Of a stretch of 64,000 nucleotides of DNA, positions 3,344-63,406 are shown in pieces. A model generated the notes under the pieces. The model worked only from the letters and a program-made list of their open reading frames with translations. It was not told the origin of the DNA and did no database searches. Each line of letters begins with the position of its first letter. The stretch's first letter is position 1. The position numbers were made by a program, and so were the translations under genes. The DNA is taken from the NCBI GenBank assembly GCA_041660065.1, contig JBAZXC010000001.1:200535-264534 (forward strand), read 5' to 3'. The stretch comes from Parcubacteria group bacterium. GTDB taxonomy: Bacteria; Patescibacteriota; Minisyncoccia; Moranbacterales; GCA-2747515.

Positions 3344-3483
3344 GTTTTGAGATCTGATCAGCGGGCACTTTCTTTAAGGAGGAGGTCTTCGTGGCACACA
3401 ATAGGGTTTTTTCGATTGGACAGGCACTCTTGACAAGAGGGCTGTTTTTTGTTATAATAGACAGTTAATTTCAATAAAATAAT

Positions 3484-15946: not shown

Positions 15947-15975
15947 TTGACATCAGAGCGATATTTCCGTATAAT
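15947..15975 (+). promoter_or_regulatory. Sigma70-type promoter (TTGACA-17-TATAAT)
   Basis: ggTTGACAtcagagcgatatttccgTATAATgaa seen directly. It lies upstream of the 16035 ORF. Confidence 0.6.
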
Positions 15976-16789: not shown

Positions 16790-19453
16790 ATGCAAAAAAA
16801 GAATATGACACTTTTCCAGAAACTATTTGGTTCAAACGAAAAACAATTAAAGAAATTGCAACCGATCATTGATCGGATCAATGCAATGGAGGAAGCGACA
16901 AAAAATTTGTCCGATGAGGGCATTAAAGCCAAAACTGCCGAATTAAAAGCACAATTACGGGATGGAAAAACCTGTGATGACATTTTGCCGGAGGCTTTTG
17001 CGCTTGTGCGCGAGGCATCATATCGCGCGATCGGACAGCGACATTATGATGTACAGCTCTTGGGTGGCATCATCCTTCATGAAGGCAAAATCGCAGAGAT
17101 GAAAACCGGTGAAGGAAAGACTCTCACATCGACATTGCCGATCTATCTCAATGCATTGGAAGGCAAGGGTGTGCATGTAGTGACGGTCAATGATTATCTG
17201 GCAAAACGTGACTGTAATTGGATGGGCGCAGTCTATGAAAAGCTGGGTTTGCAAGCGGCGTGCATCACACATGACGGCGGTTTTTTGTATTATGCAAAAA
17301 CCATTGACACAAATGAAGTGGATATTGAAGTGGAAAATTTGACCGCTGTGTCAAAAAAGGAAGCCTATGACGCGGATATTACATATGGAACGAATAACGA
17401 ATTCGGTTTTGATTATTTGCGCGACAATATGGCGCAGTCCAAAGAGCAATTATCACAGCGTGGACATCATTACGCGATCGTCGATGAGGTGGACTCGATC
17501 CTTATCGATGAAGCGCGTACGCCGCTTATCATCTCGGCACCGGACGCGGAATCAACCAAATTATATGAACAATTTGCCTCTTTCGTCCCACAATTGGTGC
17601 GCGATACGGATTATACGGTGGATGAGAAGTTGCGATCTGTCGCGATCACAGATGCGGGCATCGAAAAAGTGGAGAAGACACTCGGTATCGGCAACATCTA
17701 TGAACAAGGCAAGATCCAATATGTGCATCATTTGGAGCAGTCGCTCAAAGCGGAAACACTTTTTACGCGAGACAAAGATTATATGGTGCGCGATGGCGAG
17801 GTGGTGATCATCGATGAATTTACGGGACGTGCACAAGAGGGACGCCGGTACAGCGATGGATTGCATCAAGCGATCGAAGCAAAGGAACATGTCGAGGTGC
17901 AAAGAGAATCGCGTACACTTGCGACGATCACGTTTCAAAATTATTTCCGTATGTACAAAAAGTTAGCCGGTATGACGGGTACGGCAAATACAAGCGCGGA
18001 GGAATTTCAAAAAGTATACAAACTCGATGTGATCGAGATCCCTACAAACAAAAAAATGATCCGTACGGATCTGCCGGATGTTGTGTACAAAAATGAACGG
18101 GGCAAATTTAACGCGATCGTTGCCAAGATCAAAGAACTCAACGAAAACGGACAACCGGTTCTCGTGGGCACGGTGGCGATCGAAAAATCCGAAGCATTGA
18201 GTCGCGCACTGGAAAAAGCACGTATCTCACACAGTGTGCTCAATGCCAAATTTCATGAAAAAGAAGCCCAGATCATCGCCGATGCGGGACAGAGAGGATC
18301 GGTGACAATTGCAACCAATATGGCGGGACGCGGCACGGATATCAAACTCGGTGACGGTGTGGCGGATCTTGGCGGATTGTATATTATCGGTACGGAACGA
18401 CACGAAGCGCGACGCATCGACAATCAGTTGCGCGGACGCTCCGGTCGCCAAGGAGATGCAGGGACAACACAATTTTACATTTCTCTGGATGATGAATTGA
18501 TGCGACGGTTTGGCGGAGATAAGCTCAAAAGTATCATGGAGAAACTCGGTTTGCCGGAAGATCAACCAATTCAAAACGGCATGATCTCCAAACAGATCGA
18601 GGGAGCACAATCCAAGATCGAGGGATTTAACTTTGATATCCGCAAACACGTATTGGATTATGATAACGTCGTCAACAAACAACGTGAGATCGTTTATGAG
18701 AAACGTCGCAGTACGCTTGAAAGTGCTGATGTAAAGACGCAGATCATGGATCTCTTGCATGAAGAGATCGAAAAGGTGATCAGTATCCATACGACAGGAG
18801 AGCGTTATGCGTGGGAAGTGGAGAATATACGCAAGGATATCGTGGGAATGTTTCCTGTGAATGATGATGGGATCAAAAAAGCGGAAAATATCATCAAGGA
18901 TCACAGCAAGGATGATCGTGAAACAGTGAGTGCGGTCATTGAGCATTTTTTTGCGCTGGCAAAAAACGCATACGGCATGAAAGAAAAGGAAAATGGTGAT
19001 GTAGCAATGCGTGCAATCGAACGATCGATCCTCTTGCGCACGATCGATCAGCATTGGATGAATCATTTGGATGCGATCGATCATTTGAGGCAGGGCATCG
19101 GTCTGCGCGGATATGGACAGCAGGATCCTCTTATCGAATACAAGCGCGAGGCGTTTGATATGTTTTCACAACTTATGGCAAATATTCGCAATACAGTATT
19201 GCATACGATCTTTCGTGCAGTCATTGTGCGTCCGGAAGACAGTGCAATGGCACAAATGGCACAGAGCATGGAGTTTGCCGGTGCAGAAAGCAATCCGGCA
19301 CAATTTGCCGCAGCCGCCGCCCAAGAGGAGAAGAAATTATTGTCCAGTATGCCAAAGATCGAAAAACCGGCACAGAGCGCACATACTGTCGGACGCAATG
19401 ATGATTGCCCATGTGGCAGTGGCAAAAAATATAAGAAATGTCACGGGAAATAA
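16790..19453 (+). CDS. secA: Preprotein translocase ATPase SecA
   Basis: 'MKTGEGKTLTSTLPIYLNAL' (Walker A), 'IVDEVDSILIDEARTPLIIS' (DEAD-like), 'NMAGRGTDIKLGGN', and C-terminal 'CPCGSGKKYKKCHGK' zinc-binding tail. The true start is probably M at 16790 (MQKKNMTLFQKLFG) or 16805; the track ORF begins at 16727. Confidence 0.95.
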   Translation: MQKKNMTLFQKLFGSNEKQLKKLQPIIDRINAMEEATKNLSDEGIKAKTAELKAQLRDGKTCDDILPEAFALVREASYRAIGQRHYDVQLLGGIILHEGKIAEMKTGEGKTLTSTLPIYLNALEGKGVHVVTVNDYLAKRDCNWMGAVYEKLGLQAACITHDGGFLYYAKTIDTNEVDIEVENLTAVSKKEAYDADITYGTNNEFGFDYLRDNMAQSKEQLSQRGHHYAIVDEVDSILIDEARTPLIISAPDAESTKLYEQFASFVPQLVRDTDYTVDEKLRSVAITDAGIEKVEKTLGIGNIYEQGKIQYVHHLEQSLKAETLFTRDKDYMVRDGEVVIIDEFTGRAQEGRRYSDGLHQAIEAKEHVEVQRESRTLATITFQNYFRMYKKLAGMTGTANTSAEEFQKVYKLDVIEIPTNKKMIRTDLPDVVYKNERGKFNAIVAKIKELNENGQPVLVGTVAIEKSEALSRALEKARISHSVLNAKFHEKEAQIIADAGQRGSVTIATNMAGRGTDIKLGDGVADLGGLYIIGTERHEARRIDNQLRGRSGRQGDAGTTQFYISLDDELMRRFGGDKLKSIMEKLGLPEDQPIQNGMISKQIEGAQSKIEGFNFDIRKHVLDYDNVVNKQREIVYEKRRSTLESADVKTQIMDLLHEEIEKVISIHTTGERYAWEVENIRKDIVGMFPVNDDGIKKAENIIKDHSKDDRETVSAVIEHFFALAKNAYGMKEKENGDVAMRAIERSILLRTIDQHWMNHLDAIDHLRQGIGLRGYGQQDPLIEYKREAFDMFSQLMANIRNTVLHTIFRAVIVRPEDSAMAQMAQSMEFAGAESNPAQFAAAAAQEEKKLLSSMPKIEKPAQSAHTVGRNDDCPCGSGKKYKKCHGK

Positions 19454-19475
19454 AATACCCGTCAATCTAAATATA

Positions 19476-19503
19476 CCCCCTCTCCCCTCAAGGGGAGAGG
19501 GGG
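19476..19503 (+). terminator. Hairpin/terminator-like perfect inverted repeat after secA
   Basis: CCCCCTCTCCCCT-caa-AGGGGAGAGGGGG: a 13-bp perfect stem, pure pyrimidine/purine arms, followed by ttatt. Confidence 0.5.
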
Positions 19504-19565
19504 TTATTAGAACATATCTAAACAAGAGGTCTTTTGGGTTTTTTCTATTGGCGAAAAACCCCTCT

Positions 19566-19655
19566 TGTCATTCCCGTGAAAATTTGCATTGTATGTGGAA
19601 TAGTTTTGGATTCCCGTCCCCCGATTTCTCGAGGACAAGCTTCACGGGAATGACA
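19566..19655. repeat. MITE-like element copy 1. 15-bp perfect terminal inverted repeats TGTCATTCCCGTGAA...TTCACGGGAATGACA.
   Basis: A near-identical 3' part (ggattcccgtYccccgatttctcgaggacaagcttcacgggaatgaca, 46/47) and identical TIRs recur at 24423-24532. Confidence 0.7.
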
Positions 19656-19671
19656 AATTGATAAAAGGAAG

Positions 19672-19700
19672 TTGACAGGAGACAAAATAAGTGCTATAAT
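19672..19700 (+). promoter_or_regulatory. Consensus sigma70 promoter (TTGACA-17-TATAAT, TGc extended -10) abutting repeat copy 1
   Basis: gTTGACAggagacaaaataagTGcTATAATg seen directly. Confidence 0.65.
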
Positions 19701-19774
19701 GAAATCCTGTTCTTAGAAAATAATGCCAAGTGTAAATTTGGTATAAATAACAAAAAACAAGGAGGAAAGTTGTG

Positions 19775-20065
19775 ATGAACGATGTAAAAAAGATCTTTGT
19801 CGTGTGCAGCGGAGAGGGATGTGGTAACGTATTGGGCTGTTTTGACAAGTACGGCATCAATCGTATTTGTATTGTCGATTGTGGCAAACAAACACCGCAT
19901 GGAAAAGAGCAATTTTTCCAGTGCACAGATACAAAGGATCATGTTGAGCAAGGCGATCTCAGTGGTTACAAAATAGAGCTCGATGAAAAGGGCTCTTGTG
20001 ACCTATGTCCTACTTCAGCTACTGCCAAACTGGATTTGGAGCCGGTAGCGTATATGTCCTCATAA
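19775..20065 (+). CDS. Small Cys-rich hypothetical protein (about 96 aa)
   Basis: RBS aaggagg lies 8 nt upstream of the ATG. Eight Cys including C-x4-C, C-x3-C and C-x2-C pairs. Flanked by a consensus promoter and a strong terminator. Confidence 0.5.
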   Translation: MNDVKKIFVVCSGEGCGNVLGCFDKYGINRICIVDCGKQTPHGKEQFFQCTDTKDHVEQGDLSGYKIELDEKGSCDLCPTSATAKLDLEPVAYMSS

Positions 20066-20783: not shown

Positions 20784-22487
20784 ATGTTTAGGAAAAACTT
20801 ACGCAAATTCATCTATGTGATCATTTTTTCAATTGTGATGATCGTGATCGCTTTACCGACAGTAAAATATTTGCCTGAGTCGGTGCAAGGTCGTTTTGAA
20901 AAACTGGCGGTTAATTTGGGATTGGATCTGCAAGGAGGATTGCACTTGGAATACAAACTTGATCTTTCCAATGTGCCTGATGAGAAGAAGGGTGAAGCAA
21001 AGAATGCTGTGCAAGCGGCGGCAGAACGCAAGGTCAACGCGTACGGTGTCGGTGAGCCGATCGTCTGGCTCTCTGAACGTGGTGCGGAAACGTATTTGAT
21101 GGTAGAAATCCCGGGTGTAAAAAATATTGAAGATGTAAAGAATGTTATTCAGAAAGCACCACTCTTGGAATTCAAAGAATCAAAGACCGAGGAAGAAATG
21201 GCAAAAGAAAAAACGGATATGGACGCGGCAATGGCCGAAACACTTGCGCCGATGAACGAGGAAGCGCATCAAAAGGCGATAGGGGCGTTGGAAAGAGCAA
21301 AAAATGGCGAAGACTTTGTCGCGCTAGGAAAGGAATTCAGTCAAAATCCCGATACGGCGACGGGTGAGGAAAATGTGATCGATTTTAAAAAAAGAGCTGA
21401 TCTACCTACAGAACTTGGCGATGCGCTTTTTTCTGATAACCTAAGTGATGGATCGGTCTATCCCAACCTGATCGAAACCGATCAGGGATGGTTTATCATC
21501 AAAAAATTAGAGATGCGCGGTGAAGGTGATGAGCGAGAGGTGAGGGCACAATACATTCCTTTTGGCAAAGTTTCAATACCGGTTGAGCCGTATAAAACAA
21601 CCGGATTGACGGGAGAATTCCTCGAACGTGCAGACGTGAATATGCAAAATACAATGGGTGGCGGTATTTCTGAGCCAGCCGTCCTTTTGACGTTCAATGG
21701 TGAAGGGAAAGATTTGTTTGCAGAGATCACCAAACGCAATCTCGGCAAACCGGTCGCGATCTATCTCGACAATCAGCTCATTTCTGCGCCAACAGTACAA
21801 GCAGAGATCGTGGATGGACGTGCGGAGATCACAGGGAACTTTACCGTTACGGAAGCAAAGGAATTGGCGCGACAACTCACTGAGGGCTCGTTGCCTGTGC
21901 CCTTTGAACTCGTATCACAGCAAAGTGTTGAAGCAACGCTTGGCGCGGAAGCATTGGCAAAGAGTTTGAAAGCGGGCATGTACGGACTCCTCCTTACGAT
22001 GATCTTTATGACGCTATATTATCGTCTCTTTGGCTTGATCGCGGCACTTGCCTTGTGTGTCTATACGGGAACTTTAGTGACGATCTTTAAGTTATCCAGC
22101 TATACACCCTTGTCAATCACACTCACGCTCGCCGGTATTGCCGGTATCACGTTGTCGATTGGTATGGCGGTGGACGCGAACGTCCTCATCTTTGAGCGTA
22201 TTCGCGAAGAATTGCGTTTTGGTAAACCGTTGCGACGTGCCATAGCTGAGGGATTCAAGCGTGCATGGCCGTCAATTCGTGACGGCAATGTGTCCACGAT
22301 CATTACATCGGTGATCCTCATGATGATGGGGACGAGTTTTGTCAAAGGATTTGCGCTCATCCTCATACTTGGTATTGTCGTACACATATTTACAGCAATT
22401 GTTTTGGTGCGTATTGTGCTCACATACATTTCCGGGGATTGGCTATCCAATCATTCTTGGCTCATAATGTCTAATAAGAAGAAATAA
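20784..22487 (+). CDS. secD: Protein translocase subunit SecD, carrying an inserted parvulin-like (degenerate PPIase) domain in the periplasmic head
   Basis: 'LGLDLQGGLHLEYKLD' SecD signature and six C-terminal transmembrane helices. Residues ~155-245 align to PpiC-type parvulins but lack the catalytic His and the GGDLG motif. Confidence 0.88.
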   Translation: MFRKNLRKFIYVIIFSIVMIVIALPTVKYLPESVQGRFEKLAVNLGLDLQGGLHLEYKLDLSNVPDEKKGEAKNAVQAAAERKVNAYGVGEPIVWLSERGAETYLMVEIPGVKNIEDVKNVIQKAPLLEFKESKTEEEMAKEKTDMDAAMAETLAPMNEEAHQKAIGALERAKNGEDFVALGKEFSQNPDTATGEENVIDFKKRADLPTELGDALFSDNLSDGSVYPNLIETDQGWFIIKKLEMRGEGDEREVRAQYIPFGKVSIPVEPYKTTGLTGEFLERADVNMQNTMGGGISEPAVLLTFNGEGKDLFAEITKRNLGKPVAIYLDNQLISAPTVQAEIVDGRAEITGNFTVTEAKELARQLTEGSLPVPFELVSQQSVEATLGAEALAKSLKAGMYGLLLTMIFMTLYYRLFGLIAALALCVYTGTLVTIFKLSSYTPLSITLTLAGIAGITLSIGMAVDANVLIFERIREELRFGKPLRRAIAEGFKRAWPSIRDGNVSTIITSVILMMMGTSFVKGFALILILGIVVHIFTAIVLVRIVLTYISGDWLSNHSWLIMSNKKK

Positions 22488-23828: not shown

Positions 23829-23865
23829 TTATTTCGTTCCTTCCTTAAACACAAGAGAGGTGTCT

Positions 23866-24300
23866 ATGTTATATCGCATAATGCCGGAGAAGTTCAATCC
23901 AAAGTTAGAAGTTGCAGGCGGCTTTATTGAGTGTGGTGGTGAATTCATTTTATTGCATCGGCAAGATCATAAAGCACAAGGAGATACATGGGGGATCCCA
24001 TCTGGAAAGATTCACGACGGAGAAAATCCGCGTGATGCCGCTTGTCGTGAAACTGCAGAGGAAACTGGCGTGATAATTTCGCGAGACCATATGGGTTATT
24101 TTGCAACAGTGTATGTCAGGTATCCTGATTACGATTTTATTTATCATATATTTCACGCCAAAATAAAAAGAAAGGCTGAGATCGAGATAAATAGAAATGA
24201 ACACAAGGATGCAAAATGGGTCTCACCGCAAGATGCATTGCGCATGCCGTTGATCGGAGATCTTGGTACCTGCATAAAACTTTTTTTTCAAAATACGTAG
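23866..24300 (+). CDS. NUDIX hydrolase (second copy)
   Basis: RBS agagagg-N6-ATG at 23866. Nudix box 'GIPSGKIHDGENPRDAACRETAEETGV'. The track ORF 23617-24300 includes an unlikely N-terminal extension that overlaps the previous gene. Confidence 0.75.
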   Translation: MLYRIMPEKFNPKLEVAGGFIECGGEFILLHRQDHKAQGDTWGIPSGKIHDGENPRDAACRETAEETGVIISRDHMGYFATVYVRYPDYDFIYHIFHAKIKRKAEIEINRNEHKDAKWVSPQDALRMPLIGDLGTCIKLFFQNT

Positions 24301-24422
24301 GACATAAAGAAGTAAAAGTTTTACGTCCAAAACCGATGGCAAAAAGCTATCGGTTTTTTATATAAACACTATTATTATTTCCACAAAATGCATCCAATTT
24401 CAATTCTGCGAGTTTACCCCCA

Positions 24423-24532
24423 TGTCATTCCCGTGAAAACGGGAATCTAGAATTCAGAATTATTATACGACAAATATTGATAGTGGATTCCCGTTCCCCG
24501 ATTTCTCGAGGACAAGCTTCACGGGAATGACA
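24423..24532. repeat. MITE-like element copy 2 (same 15-bp TIRs as copy 1)
   Basis: TGTCATTCCCGTGAA...(internal palindrome ttcccgtgaaaacgggaa)...ggattcccgttccccgatttctcgaggacaagcTTCACGGGAATGACA. Confidence 0.7.
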
Positions 24533-24580
24533 GTTGATCGTATGTAGAAAATTATAGCTATTCGCGGGAATCTACTAGAG

Positions 24581-24609
24581 TTGACATGATCTGAAAATTA
24601 TGCTATAAT
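24581..24609 (+). promoter_or_regulatory. Consensus sigma70 promoter (TTGACA-17-TATAAT, TGc extended -10) downstream of repeat copy 2
   Basis: gTTGACAtgatctgaaaattaTGcTATAATt has the same architecture as the promoter after copy 1. Confidence 0.65.
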
Positions 24610-24681
24610 TAACGGTTGAAATTGTTCAACAAATCAATTGTTGTGTTATTTGAAAATATCAAATTTCAATAGGAGAAAGAT

Positions 24682-25224
24682 ATGAGAAACTATGCCACCA
24701 GCCTTTTTTCATCAAGTGCGGATGTTGTGGCCACAGCGTTGATCTTTGCACTTTCGATGGGGATACTCCTCGTCATCCTAATTACGGGAATACAAAGAAG
24801 GAAGTTGCAACGAGAGCGCGATGCCTGTTACATGGTATTAATCGATCAGTTCATCAGAAAAAGAAATCCATTGGCTGATTTGATACTCGCTGAGATTGTG
24901 AGGGTCAGTATGACCATTTTAAAAGATGATGGAGAACTGATCAAATATGCCGTAGCAAAGATCCGTGATGCAAAATGTTATCGTATCTTTACTGATAACG
25001 GAATTATTTTAGATGAATATCGAATCATGATTGGTGCGATATTGAATATTGGTGCCCAATACAAGAAAGAGGCATCTGCAGTGGAAAGTGCCAATCAGAT
25101 TTTAATCACGGCGTTTTCAGCTCACTATATTGATATGAGCCAGGGGGTTCAGGCACATCTCAATCGCGCGAGTGACATTTTAATACAAATGTCATCGATG
25201 CTGGATAATCTCAAATCAATCTAA
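24682..25224 (+). CDS. Hypothetical membrane-anchored protein
   Basis: RBS taggagaaag-N4-ATG. One N-terminal transmembrane segment (ALIFALSMGILLVILITGI). Followed by a strong terminator (gcgcccacta...tggtgggcg + T-run, ~25232-25275). Confidence 0.5.
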   Translation: MRNYATSLFSSSADVVATALIFALSMGILLVILITGIQRRKLQRERDACYMVLIDQFIRKRNPLADLILAEIVRVSMTILKDDGELIKYAVAKIRDAKCYRIFTDNGIILDEYRIMIGAILNIGAQYKKEASAVESANQILITAFSAHYIDMSQGVQAHLNRASDILIQMSSMLDNLKSI

Positions 25225-29841: not shown

Positions 29842-30933
29842 ATGAAAAAACGTCAATACATTTATCCGCTTGCTGTGATATCTTTGACGGTGCTCTGCGG
29901 ATGTGCGATTACAACGTCGCCAACACAGAAAGACAAAAATGATGTCACAAATGATCTGACGGATCGTGAAAAGATGGACGATACCACTGCATACAAGAAA
30001 CTTTATGATCCACCAGAGGGCGGTGATCAAAAAAACATCGGCAAGATCATTTTCGCATCAGATCTCGGCAGTACCACAAATGCGGATTATGACCTGTACA
30101 CGATAAATCCTGATGGTACAGAGAAGACGCGTCTGACAACAGTTGAAGGCTTCATCGATCACCCTGCATGGTCACCGGAACATTCACGGATCGCATACAG
30201 CGCGCATGTGGATGAATATAACACGGAGAAGATCTTTATCATGACTGTCGATGGTAGCGAGAAAAGGCAATTGACTTTTGGCAAAAGTCGCGACAAGTTT
30301 CCCACATGGTCCCCGGACGGAAAATATATCGCATACATTGCTTACACGGACAATACGCCAAATTTGTTTGTCTTGGACATCTATGGGGAAAATCAGAAGC
30401 AATTGACGTTTGTAGATAAAGGAGAAACAGCTTTGTGGCCAACATGGTCCCCGGATGGAAGCGTGATCGGTTATTCATATAACAAGGCTGGCGATGAGAT
30501 AGACTTTCGTCTTCGAACCATACGTCCTGACGGCACGGACATGCGAGAGATCATTTCTTCAAACGATCCCGATGTGAGCGATCATGAACCCGCTTGGTCA
30601 CCGGATGGTAAAACGCTATATTTCCTTTCCAATCGGAGTAGCCAAATGGAAATTTGGAAGATGGACTATGATAAATATTTGCAACTTATCACAACACACG
30701 AAGAAATTGATGACAAAAATGTAAACCTTACACAGGTTTCTCATCTGGCAAGTGTCAATGTAAACCCTGATCATCGACCGAGAGTGTCACCGGATGGAAA
30801 GAAAATTGTTTTTTATGGTGTTGGTAGCGATTGGCACAATATCGGCACCAATCTCTACATCATAAATGTTGATGGAACGGGTTTGACAAATATTACAAAA
30901 TCCATTGATGGAAATGAGTGGCCAAATTGGTAA
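29842..30933 (+). CDS. Lipoprotein with TolB-like (PD40/WD40-like) beta-propeller repeats
   Basis: Lipobox LTVLCGCA. Repeated 'W/VSPDGK/S-x-I/L-A/G-Y/F' units: WSPEHSRIAY, WSPDGKYIAY, WSPDGSVIGY, WSPDGKTLYF, VSPDGKKIVF. Confidence 0.7.
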   Translation: MKKRQYIYPLAVISLTVLCGCAITTSPTQKDKNDVTNDLTDREKMDDTTAYKKLYDPPEGGDQKNIGKIIFASDLGSTTNADYDLYTINPDGTEKTRLTTVEGFIDHPAWSPEHSRIAYSAHVDEYNTEKIFIMTVDGSEKRQLTFGKSRDKFPTWSPDGKYIAYIAYTDNTPNLFVLDIYGENQKQLTFVDKGETALWPTWSPDGSVIGYSYNKAGDEIDFRLRTIRPDGTDMREIISSNDPDVSDHEPAWSPDGKTLYFLSNRSSQMEIWKMDYDKYLQLITTHEEIDDKNVNLTQVSHLASVNVNPDHRPRVSPDGKKIVFYGVGSDWHNIGTNLYIINVDGTGLTNITKSIDGNEWPNW

Positions 30934-33466: not shown

Positions 33467-33624
33467 GATATTTTTTGTTTAATTGATTAGTATAAAACAG
33501 AGCTAATTCTATCATAAATTTCACAAATTGACAAAATGTTACTTTTGTACTATAATAGGCGCTACAGTATAAATTTCCCGTTCTTTTCTTATCTTAATTT
33601 TTGCCAAAAAGGAGAGCAAAATTT

Positions 33625-55433: not shown

Positions 55434-56447
55434 TTATATGTCTTGCAATTGTGCCTTGACCATTATGCGTCGTGCGTTTGTGCCAAGTGGCCAACACGTC
55501 GTCAATGTTAATTCTTGTGATCGTGATTGTGCAAAGATCCGTGCATCATCCGAAGAAACTTCTTCTTTGAGCGACACAATATAGTCATAGGAGATCTTTT
55601 TGCCATTTACAAATGCCATCGTTACCGTGATCTTATCTCCTGGCGCAAGATCATTCAATCCTTTGAAAACATAATTATACGCACCACCTGACCATGCATA
55701 ATTACTGCTATGTCCCGCGATATAGGCATTGCCACGTTGTCCCGGAAGCGCCGTGCCAGGATAATGTACAACACCGTTTTCAAGATCTTTTTGCAGGGCG
55801 CCTTCATCCGTGCTTGCAGAGAGTACAACCGGTGCTTCCACATCAATTTTGTCGATTGCGATCATAAAAGTGATTTGCGCTTTTCCTGGCGCGACAGGAT
55901 CATAGCCATTGGCAATTTCACGTCCATCCGTATAGCCATCGCCATCCGTGTCGGCTTTTTTTGGATCAGTACCAAAAATATATTCATCATAATACGTCAG
56001 TCCATCATTATCAGGATCATCATCACCGTCGTCAACGACACGTCCGATCATTTCAATCTCCCATTTGTCAGGAATGTGATTATTATTTACATCCAGCACG
56101 CCCTCTCCGCTTGGAGAGTAACCATTCTTCACTTCACGTCCATCCGTATACCCATCACCATCCGTATCAGCATTTTTTGGATCGGTGTTATATGTATATT
56201 CATCAAGCAGCGTCAATCCATCATGATCTTGATCCAATTTGAGATCGATCTCATTTTTTACAACAACATTATATTTTTTCATCCACGCTTGTGCAATACC
56301 AAAATCTCTCTTAGTCGCAACGTCTTCCTCGGCGACATAAGCGATTTTGCGTGAACTATATGCGTTCATACCGCCGGAAATCACAAAATACACGATAAAA
56401 AACGTGATAACAAATGCCCCAATTGTCGATAAAATTCGCATATTCAT
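55434..56447 (-). CDS. Sortase-family transpeptidase with N-terminal thrombospondin-type-3-like Ca-binding repeats
   Basis: Transmembrane anchor. Two 'DTDGDGYTDGRE' TSP3 repeats plus 'DDGDDDPDNDG'. Catalytic 'IAGH' His and 'TLTTCWP' (TLxTC) Cys motif. Confidence 0.75.
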   Translation of the reverse strand: MNMRILSTIGAFVITFFIVYFVISGGMNAYSSRKIAYVAEEDVATKRDFGIAQAWMKKYNVVVKNEIDLKLDQDHDGLTLLDEYTYNTDPKNADTDGDGYTDGREVKNGYSPSGEGVLDVNNNHIPDKWEIEMIGRVVDDGDDDPDNDGLTYYDEYIFGTDPKKADTDGDGYTDGREIANGYDPVAPGKAQITFMIAIDKIDVEAPVVLSASTDEGALQKDLENGVVHYPGTALPGQRGNAYIAGHSSNYAWSGGAYNYVFKGLNDLAPGDKITVTMAFVNGKKISYDYIVSLKEEVSSDDARIFAQSRSQELTLTTCWPLGTNARRIMVKAQLQDI

Positions 56448-56575
56448 TTTTTTACGTGATCAGATACTGATTTTTAATTATAACATTTTTTATTAGTTTT
56501 GTCAACGGATTGTTTTTTAACATGATACATGCTAAACGACAAAAAAAATTAGTGACCCGGAAAATTACCAGGCCA

Positions 56576-57136: not shown

Positions 57137-57373
57137 CTCCAGTTGTTAAAGTTTTAACCCATAATAACAAAGTACTCTGTGGCAAGATTATAGATGATAA
57201 CTGCATTTTTGTCAAGTCAAAAAGGCAATGTCCAAAAAAAGAGCTGAGTACAAGAATTCAACACAATCCCTGATTTAAGATAGAATGGATTAATGAATAT
57301 GCATCCAAAAAACACCTCACAATCACAATGTTGCAGGGTGCTTTAAAAGTGATTTTTCTCGATTCATCCTCAT

Positions 57374-63063: not shown

Positions 63064-63135
63064 CTCGTCGGGGTACGCGGGATCGAACCGCGACTACAAG
63101 ACCCCCAGCCTTGCGTACTACCACTATACGATACC
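63064..63135 (-). tRNA. tRNA-Pro (anticodon GGG)
   Basis: The reverse complement folds as acceptor CGGGGTA/TACCCCG (C1:G72, typical of bacterial tRNA-Pro), anticodon stem CAAGG/TCTTG with loop CTGGGGG (anticodon GGG, G37), and T-arm CGCGG-TTCGATC-CCGCG. Confidence 0.8.
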
Positions 63136-63169
63136 CCGCATAATCTTTTTTATATTATAACATTGTTTT

Positions 63170-63241
63170 CCTGTCGGGGCGCCGAGAATCGAACTCGGTC
63201 TACATGAACCCGAATCATGCGTACTACCGGTATACTACGCC
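63170..63241 (-). tRNA. tRNA-Pro (anticodon CGG)
   Basis: Acceptor CGGGGCG/CGCCCCG, anticodon stem CATGA/TCATG with loop TTCGGGT (anticodon CGG, G37), T-arm CCGAG-TTCGATT-CTCGG. Minus-strand promoter TTGCAA-17-TAGAAT at ~63245-63275. Confidence 0.8.
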
Positions 63242-63406
63242 CCGCACTACAAACATCATCCATTCTACCCAAAAAATAGGATGATTGCAACCGATGACCA
63301 TCCATCGCATTTTTTCACGCACATTATGTGCACATATTATGAACAGACGCTTTTTACAAAGGTCTGCTATAATACGTACATCGTTAAATACTATCCTTTT
63401 TCCCCT

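Follow-up and report, generated by a model that had tools for sequence, protein, structure and literature searches.

The window analysed here is a stretch of 64,000 nucleotides (nt) from a Parcubacteria group bacterium (contig JBAZXC010000001.1 of assembly GCA_041660065.1, positions 200,535 to 264,534), and it holds two copies of a short non-coding repeat, both sitting in gaps between the terminator of one gene and the promoter of the next. Copy 1 lies downstream of secA and copy 2 downstream of a NUDIX gene. A preliminary description of copy 2 had presented it as an element resembling a miniature inverted-repeat transposable element (MITE), with terminal inverted repeats (TIRs), a variable interior and an adjoining promoter that might belong to the repeat. 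We consider it likely that the unit consists of two head-to-head hairpins of the NTS/SRM class (Neisseria Transformation Sequence/Ssn-related motif), to which the dRS3 and NIME repeats of Neisseria belong, arranged as a forward hairpin (module A), a spacer and a reverse hairpin (module B). The parts of the two copies are as follows.

24423-24532, plus strand: copy 2, the whole 110-nt unit, with forward hairpin, AT-rich spacer and reverse expanded-loop hairpin
24423-24451, plus strand: module A, canonical NTS/SRM-type hairpin, TGTCATTCCCGTGAAAACGGGAATCTAGA, with the dRS3 pattern inside it at 24427-24446
24452-24483, no strand: AT-rich spacer, 22% GC, not conserved between copies 1 and 2
24484-24532, minus strand: module B, reverse-oriented NTS reading TGTCATTCCCGTGAAGCTTGTCCTCGAGAAATCGGGGAACGGGAATCCA on the minus strand, in which a nested hairpin replaces the loop
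24495-24512, minus strand: nested hairpin in the module B loop, TCCCCGA-TTTC-TCGAGGA when read on the plus strand
24513-24518: conserved linker CAAGCT after the nested hairpin
19566-19655, plus strand: copy 1, 90 nt, with module A reduced to its 5' arm (19566-19582)
19607-19655: module B of copy 1, with its nested hairpin at 19618-19635
24564-24575, plus strand: putative solo 3' half of an NTS (GCGGGAATCTAC) between copy 2 and the promoter, sharing CGGGAATCTA with module A

As described before, the two copies share their ends and their 3' halves. Copy 2 begins with TGTCATTCCCGTGAA (24423-24437) and ends with its exact complement TTCACGGGAATGACA (24518-24532), a 15/15 inverted match; the identical pair of 15-mers bounds copy 1 (19566-19580 and 19641-19655), and these are the only matches without mismatch in the window. 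The 3' halves (19607-19655 and 24484-24532) are identical at 48 of 49 nt (98%). The interior of copy 2 is indeed longer and different, by 20 nt, and the spacers (24 nt in copy 1, 32 nt in copy 2; 22-29% GC) are mutually unrelated. GC content runs as a wave through the unit, with 45-55% in the hairpin modules and 22-29% in the spacers (window, 40.7%). The pattern ATTCCCG-N(2-30)-CGGGAAT was found three times in the window, with 0.01 occurrences expected. The perfect palindrome reported for the interior is present as sequence at 24427-24446; it is ATTCCCGT-GAAA-ACGGGAAT, in which a 4-nt loop separates the arms of a perfect 8-bp stem, so that it is no palindrome in the strict sense. Module B, which reads TGTCATTCCCGTGA-AGCTTGTCCTCGAGAAATCGGGGAA-CGGGAATCCA on the minus strand, shares its outer stem and flanks with module A, and its loop is a second small hairpin with an AGCTTG leader. 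The 15-nt "TIRs" make better sense as outer arms (TGTCATTCCCG...), one from each of two inverted NTS-type hairpins, than as ends bound by a transposase. The further partial unit noted near 24565 was also located (CGGGAATCTA at 24565-24574); whether it is a remnant of an NTS is uncertain, since the closest relative compared (L111, below) has ACGCGGATA at the place aligned with 24564-24575.

Several observations were made around these boundaries. The left flanks of both copies share GCGA-N5-ACCCC, so that the unit might reach about 15 nt further to the left. Two more inverted repeats lie between secA and copy 1, at 19474-19505 (CCCCCTCTCCCC-TCAA-GGGGAGAGGGGG) and 19527-19566 (AGAGG..GGGTTTTT...AAAAACCCCTCT), and both are missing from L111 along with the element. 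The last codons of secA (TGTCACGGGAAA) resemble the repeat arm, a resemblance that we dismissed as normal coding of the SEC-C motif CHGK. The Logan assembly of the source sample breaks within copy 2, as expected for a repeat.

The NTS, CGTCATTCCCGCGMAVGCGGGAATCYRG, includes the classical dRS3 repeat ATTCCC-N8-GGGAAT, and related hairpins can be searched with the degenerate SRM sequence HGTCWYN(0-2)YYVSBRHN(0-5)WNVSBRGN(0-2)RNCYNB, in which loops of 0-5 nt are allowed (Chenal et al. 2025, Nat Commun, PMC11893778). SsnA, a small single-domain GIY-YIG nuclease (cd10448), binds and cuts such hairpins only as single-stranded DNA (ssDNA), a few bases 5' of them, and has no activity on RNA; the GTC flank and the C following the stem are critical, while the loop is dispensable and can be extended, extensions being tolerated in vitro (PMC11893778). 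Genes for Ssn in various phyla typically have such motifs on both sides, and Ssn cutting reduces the integration of transforming DNA that carries an NTS (PMC11893778). In Neisseria, dRS3-RS-dRS3 units form the NIMEs, which show a GC wave (Parkhill 2000, Bentley 2007, PMC1797815); the RS are 19-214 nt long, and the 2007 paper states that NIMEs were not seen beyond the genus (PMC1797815).

Compared with these definitions, the SRM search sequence gave a single match in the window, at 24423-24450 on the plus strand (0.12 per shuffled window), and the dRS3 pattern is present within it. Of the 28 positions of the NTS consensus, module A keeps 25 and departs from three; one departure is at position 1, and the other two together exchange a C-G for a T-A pair in the stem, a compensatory change. 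Module B carries ATTCCCG-N28-CGGGAAT in place of the N8 form. The arrangement GTC-ATTCCCGT...ACGGGAAT-C is found on the plus strand in module A and on the minus strand in both copies of module B, so that the oriented GTC 5' flank, the C directly 3' of the stem and the ssDNA hairpin that characterize NTS/SRM sequences are all present. Moreover, module A is identical at 29 of 30 positions to an NTS of Neisseria gonorrhoeae (CGTCATTCCCGTGAAAACGGGAATCTAGAA; L116, 291-320), and a reverse NTS comes about 50 nt after this gonococcal sequence, which gives the two-hairpin architecture of the window. The TGAAAA variant of module A also occurs in N. gonorrhoeae. A blastn search of a plasmid collection with copy 2 matched solely two N. 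gonorrhoeae chromosomes filed as plasmids (PLSDB NZ_CP119140.1 and NZ_CP119142.1, L116; 2.17 Mb), and a phage collection gave no match.

The preliminary description had proposed folding the repeat computationally. As ssDNA, both copies fold far more strongly than shuffled sequences on either strand (z -5.9 to -7.6), with -25.3 kcal/mol (z -6.5) on the plus strand and -26.8 kcal/mol (z -7.6) on the minus strand of copy 2, and z values of -5.9 and -6.4 on the two strands of copy 1. The module A hairpin alone reaches -7.8 kcal/mol (z -4.6), and module B is more stable on the minus strand (-11.1 versus -9.2 kcal/mol). Among 49 distinct variants of the family, the nested 7-bp stem covaries: pair 7 is A-T in 20, C-G in 12 and T-A in 4, and pair 6 is G-C in 38 and A-T in 3. 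Pair 4 shows the commonest "mismatch": it reads C.A on the plus strand and thus corresponds to a G.T wobble on the minus strand. In total, 309 of 343 cells are paired, against 279.7 +/- 3.8 after shuffling, and none of 1,000 shuffles reached the observed value. Together, the covariation and the G.T asymmetry show that the nested structure is under selection, on the strand where module B reads GTCAT... (the NTS-sense strand).

To follow module B across bacteria, one genome per species was scanned for its last 22 nt, GACAAGCTTCACGGGAATGACA, and exact matches were obtained at 109 loci in at least 15 phylum-level lineages. These include Desulfobacterota/Deltaproteobacteria, Bdellovibrionota, SAR324, Alpha-, Beta- and Gammaproteobacteria, Nitrospirota, Nitrospinota, Planctomycetota, Verrucomicrobiota, Bacteroidota, Calditrichota, Acidobacteriota and Chloroflexota, as well as the candidate phyla Saccharibacteria, Taylorbacteria, Wolfebacteria, Sungiibacteriota, CPR2 and Edwardsbacteria. 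At the best loci (Bdellovibrionales, Taylorbacteria and others), identity to module B of the window is 94-96% over all 49 nt, so that among the copies compared the full form is shared from Parcubacteria to Bdellovibrionota. A forward GTCAT-type hairpin lies within about 150 nt upstream in 80 of 110 testable instances, and 32 of these 80 fit the published search sequence. The nested-hairpin module is almost invariant between phyla and lies outside the published motif; a literature search found no follow-up paper on it. A scan of metagenomes for the variant specific to the window, CCGATTTCTCGAGGACAAGCTTCAC, gave no match.

Almost all copies are intergenic, with 3 of 94 inside long open frames as compared with 327 of 540 random intervals (61%). 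A protein-coding reading of the repeat was rejected on this ground and because its variation consists of compensatory stem changes. The small inner unit, CCCCG-loop-CGRGGNCAAGCT, has three settings, seen at L003 (7622-7780, minus strand), L018, L030, L040 and other loci. Loops of reverse NTS hosts are one; loops of forward hosts are another, with about 20 cases, where the relative orientation is opposite; in the third, no host hairpin is present and the unit stands alone or in tandem.

A link between the hairpins and an Ssn-like nuclease is found within this wider family. In an Edwardsbacteria locus (L007), a 93-amino-acid (aa) single-domain GIY-YIG gene (PF01541, 2e-19) has hairpins on both sides, one of them with an expanded loop, and a forward and reverse pair lies downstream of the gene. 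In a Taylorbacteria locus (L099), a GIY-YIG gene is present in decayed form. A further 10 kb upstream of the window (L117) contains no extra copy of the repeat.

The SecA of the window is 100% identical to a protein encoded on a 469-kb contig of a "Parcubacteria group bacterium" MAG, and the relatives next to it are Moranbacteria-like; the relatives compared were obtained via SecA homologues and their contigs. The syntenic contigs of relatives with 97%, 88% and 80% identical SecA contain no SRM and no module B, and a metagenome search for relatives by SecF, aimed at empty sites, confirmed none. Against the relative with 97% identical SecA (L111), 19441-19662 of the window is replaced by 13 nt and 23833-24598 by 181 nt. 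At both right-hand junctions homology resumes within 6 nt of ...ATGACA, and the left junctions fall inside indels that are larger than the element and extend well past its left TIR. The right junctions lie 3-6 nt outside the arm, which is compatible with Ssn nicking about 3 nt outside the unit; these are two junctions only, and the alignments are ambiguous by a few bases.

Three indels relative to L111 (19441-19662, about 20130, and 23833-24598) cluster at or between the copies. One of them is a 2.35-kb block of three genes that only L111 has, and another is a NUDIX gene that only the window has. The 8 kb upstream are collinear between the two. The ORFs of 97 and 180 aa just downstream of each copy have 76% identity or no blastn match, while their neighbours have 89-93%.

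Several results weigh against assigning the unit to the NTS/SRM class. The strict Neisseria 28-mer, for which PMC11893778 allows at most one mismatch, excludes module A with its three differences, and so module A is an SRM and not a canonical NTS. Module B and the truncated module A of copy 1 lie outside the SRM search sequence, owing to the long loop and to the truncation, respectively. No GIY-YIG/Ssn ORF was found by phmmer in the 64-kb window or at the loci of the three relatives with the L007 protein and a reconstructed L099 fragment as queries; the ORFs of the extra 10 kb (L117) were not part of this search. Just two copies occur in 74 kb, so the repeat has not expanded in this part of the genome. 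The indels relative to L111 do not demonstrate a clean insertion, since they exceed the element on the left. Finally, conservation of the last 22 nt of module B is partly forced by retrieval of the loci on that 22-mer; the 27 nt beyond it are 85-93% identical to the window in the copies compared.

We nevertheless consider the assignment to two NTS/SRM-class hairpins likely, and a mechanism can be proposed by analogy with the published nuclease. Because the hairpins are paired head to head, each DNA strand presents one sense hairpin. When the DNA becomes single-stranded, as incoming transforming DNA or as a replication or repair intermediate, the top strand would expose module A and the bottom strand module B, each flanked as required, by GTC on the 5' side and by C directly past the stem. 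A small GIY-YIG nuclease of the Ssn type might bind the hairpin and nick about 3 nt outside each end of the unit, and recombination tracts could be shortened or delimited in this way. Since loop extensions are tolerated in vitro (PMC11893778), module B would be expected to remain a substrate. Recombination with foreign DNA, or hairpin-directed spread, most likely brought the unit in or keeps it there, and the unit probably plays no part in firing the neighbouring promoters. What is new is the host group; the kind of repeat (NTS/SRM, as a NIME-like unit) is known.

A more tentative proposal, which we regard as doubtful, concerns module B on its own. It may be an undescribed hairpin-within-hairpin form of the Ssn repeats, in which a small NTS-like hairpin with an AGCTTG leader (AGCTTGTCCTCG-loop-CGGGGAA, minus strand) sits inside a larger NTS loop. 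The 22-mer of this form extends to Nitrospirota, Planctomycetota and Bacteroidota. Such a distribution, together with the varied settings of the inner unit, would be expected if an ssDNA element propagated itself by inserting into hairpin loops, or if a distinct and very widely shared clade of Ssn read a three-way structure. In the former case, Ssn and its hairpins would constitute a new type of mobile element with MITE-like, gene-less derivatives. On the proposal as a whole, the window copies would mark the endpoints of recent recombination or insertion in a genome of the candidate phyla radiation (CPR).

Among the alternatives, that of a classical MITE, a deletion derivative of an insertion sequence (IS) that is mobilised in trans when a DDE transposase binds its 15-nt TIRs, is the one with most in its favour, and we regard it as unlikely. 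The perfect 15/15 inverted ends, the two copies with variable interior and the absence of the element at both orthologous sites in L111 would all be expected of such an element. In addition, true MITEs occur in related organisms: Taylorbacteria and other Parcubacteria have elements of 136-190 bp, bounded by the outer TIR TAGGACTTACGC, that are built around the same hairpin pair, and perfect 5-bp target duplications were seen in 42 of 64 strand-instances at these Parcubacteria loci. One of them, a 167-bp element in Taylorbacteria (MHSB01000003.1; L099, 561-727, minus strand), splits the decayed GIY-YIG (Ssn-like) gene mentioned above; it has outer TAGGACTTACGC TIRs, the 5-bp duplication CAGAA and the two-hairpin core, and its excision restores the frame ...KEHNQKLNFSTKRYAPWKLIYYEG. 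However, neither window copy is flanked by a target-site duplication (CCTCT/AATTG and CCCCA/GTTGA), and both lack the outer TIRs that delimit the true MITEs. The "TIRs" of the window are exactly the hairpin arms common to solo NTS repeats, no transposase with such ends was seen, and the L111 indels run well beyond the left TIR. The copies in Deltaproteobacteria carry outer repeats of another kind. Since the outer repeats differ by lineage and the window copies are devoid of them, the hairpin pair is the conserved core, and true MITE behaviour belongs to lineage-specific shells that are missing from the window copies. Overall, the MITE-like label of the preliminary description fits insofar as the repeat is short and non-coding, with inverted ends that are conserved and an interior that varies; the window copies show no target duplication, and MITE status is unproven in the genome of the window.

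A second alternative places the function in RNA, with the repeat acting in a REP-like manner: as a stable stem-loop it would lie in the 3' untranslated part of the transcript from the upstream operon (secA, NUDIX) and block exonucleases or read-through. Both copies do lie just past a gene end and before the next promoter, oriented as the genes, and the 15-bp outer stem with its inner hairpins would fold equally well in RNA; such an effect would also be compatible with NTS/SRM-class hairpins, as a side effect of them. We nevertheless hold it to be improbable. A hairpin is already present behind each upstream gene, at 19474-19505 for copy 1 and, with T6 after it, at 24333-24353 for copy 2. The terminator scan passes over the repeat stems, and no T-run follows them, on which ground we rejected a function as intrinsic terminator. 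In Rfam, only tRNAs reach the gathering threshold in the whole window, and nothing relevant was obtained for either copy at E <=10. Furthermore, the published SsnA is inactive on RNA (PMC11893778), and copies of the family occur in both orientations relative to adjacent genes, although this was not quantified.

With respect to the adjoining promoters, those described for copy 2 and found also beside copy 1 are the following.

24581-24609, plus strand: host promoter TTGACA-17-TATAAT with TG, not in the repeat; its ortholog in L111 lacks the element
19672-19700, plus strand: host promoter TTGACA-17-TATAAT beside copy 1, not in the repeat; its ortholog in L111 lacks the element

In L111, the orthologous promoters are GTTAACAGAAGACAAGATAAGTGTTATGAC and TTGACAATTACTTAATTATATGCTATAAT, with the element absent, and the promoters of L111 and the window align as GAAGTTAACAGAAGACAAGATAAGTGTTATGAC with GAAGTTGACAGGAGACAAAATAAGTGCTATAAT and TTGACAATTACTTAATTATATGCTATAAT with TTGACATGATCTGAAAATTATGCTATAAT. 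Perfect TTGACA-17-TATAAT sites number eight in the window, against 0.13 expected (382-410, 3430-3458, 15947-15975, 19672-19700, 24581-24609, 33528-33556, 56477-56505 and 57187-57215; several are TG-extended), and the window organism appears to use near-consensus promoters routinely. In the 3' flanks of the copies, ...ATGACA is followed by GTTGATCG and AATTGATA, and none of about 110 related copies elsewhere has such a promoter after ...GGGAATGACA. Because the L111 promoters stand without the element, eight perfect sites exist and the related copies are promoterless, these sequence comparisons indicate that the promoter is the host's own and that the promoter does not form part of the repeated unit, contrary to what had been suggested. 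The partial similarity claimed for the two promoter spacers was likewise not convincing, since 7 of 16 positions match between the hexamers, as counted by eye. Hence it is very improbable that the element is a composite regulatory repeat which brings along a promoter, or that it controls the adjacent one as a cruciform or as a binding site for a protein: the copies do lie 16 and 48 nt upstream of perfect TTGACA-17-TGnTATAAT promoters, but this distance to the -35 box varies, six other perfect promoters in the window have no element, and both L111 promoters do without it.

The promoter at 24581-24609 and the ORF downstream of it were confirmed; the latter (24682-25224) encodes 180 aa with an N-terminal hydrophobic segment and has no Pfam match. 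The ORF downstream of copy 1 (19772-20065) encodes 97 aa, is rich in cysteine with several CxxC-like pairs, and has no Pfam match either; ORFs of 95-101 aa also lie just downstream of secA in L111 and L113, with nucleotide similarity confirmed for L111 only (76%). Between the two copies, 20784-22487 encodes a SecD with an inserted PPIC-type rotamase (parvulin) domain at residues of about 157-243, which is also present in the SecD of L113 and L115. Elsewhere in the window, adjacent tRNA-Pro genes (GGG and CGG anticodons) lie on the minus strand at 63067-63244, beside which a Logan contig of the source sample ends. The stretch 55903-56234 contains a direct repeat of 116 nt (77% identity, 216 nt apart), and a motif of 22-32 nt occurs four times at 30292-30800 with a spacing of 138-189 nt; both may be repeated protein-coding modules.

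As to what the repeat implies, a Parcubacteria/Moranbacteria-like (CPR) genome would join the carriers of NTS/dRS3-type hairpins, which were long considered specific to Neisseria and were tied to a dedicated ssDNA nuclease only in 2025. The main interest lies in the cross-phylum nested-hairpin variant: with loops limited to 0-5 nt, the published motif fails to capture an abundant expanded-loop form, which hardly varies between phyla and usually stands head to head with a canonical hairpin. If Ssn acts on these units, they could serve as natural markers of ssDNA cutting, on incoming or exposed DNA, in many uncultured bacteria, and the nested form would offer a ready-made test of how far Ssn tolerates cargo in the loop. 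For annotation, the element should be masked as a repeat and both promoters treated as ordinary host promoters.

Among known systems, the REP/BIME repeats with their RAYT enzymes (IS200/IS605-like) also consist of extragenic hairpins, often in inverted pairs. A small dedicated nuclease-type enzyme recognises them as ssDNA, and the repeats stand on both sides of its gene. The difference lies in the 5' flank, which is GTCA in the window and not GTAG/GTGG, and in the partner enzyme, which would be GIY-YIG and not HUH/Y1; the tetranucleotide GT[AG]G is absent 5' of the window palindrome, and no search was aimed at RAYT genes. Like MITEs with structured interiors, such as the Neisseria Correia elements and the Taylorbacteria MITE, the window unit is small, non-coding, multicopy and mostly intergenic, with inverted ends. 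Unlike these, its copies have neither target duplications nor outer TIRs, and no cognate transposase is known. From the dRS3/NIME units of Neisseria the window differs in having single two-hairpin units and not long arrays, in its host, in a spacer of 24-32 nt at the short end of the RS range, and in a second hairpin that is not an N8 dRS3; it shares with them the ATTCCC-N8-GGGAAT pattern and two hairpins around a low-GC spacer, with the matching GC wave. Compared with the NTS/SRM repeats at large, the window differs in that no ssn gene was seen in it, there are two copies only, module A of copy 1 is a half-site, module B has a 24-nt structured insert where the published motif allows a loop of 0-5 nt, and the host is a CPR bacterium, a group unmentioned in PMC11893778. 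It resembles them in that module A fits the SRM search sequence and forms a hairpin with the oriented GTC flank and C, in being intergenic and spread across phyla, and in the single-domain GIY-YIG gene that stands between such hairpins in L007.

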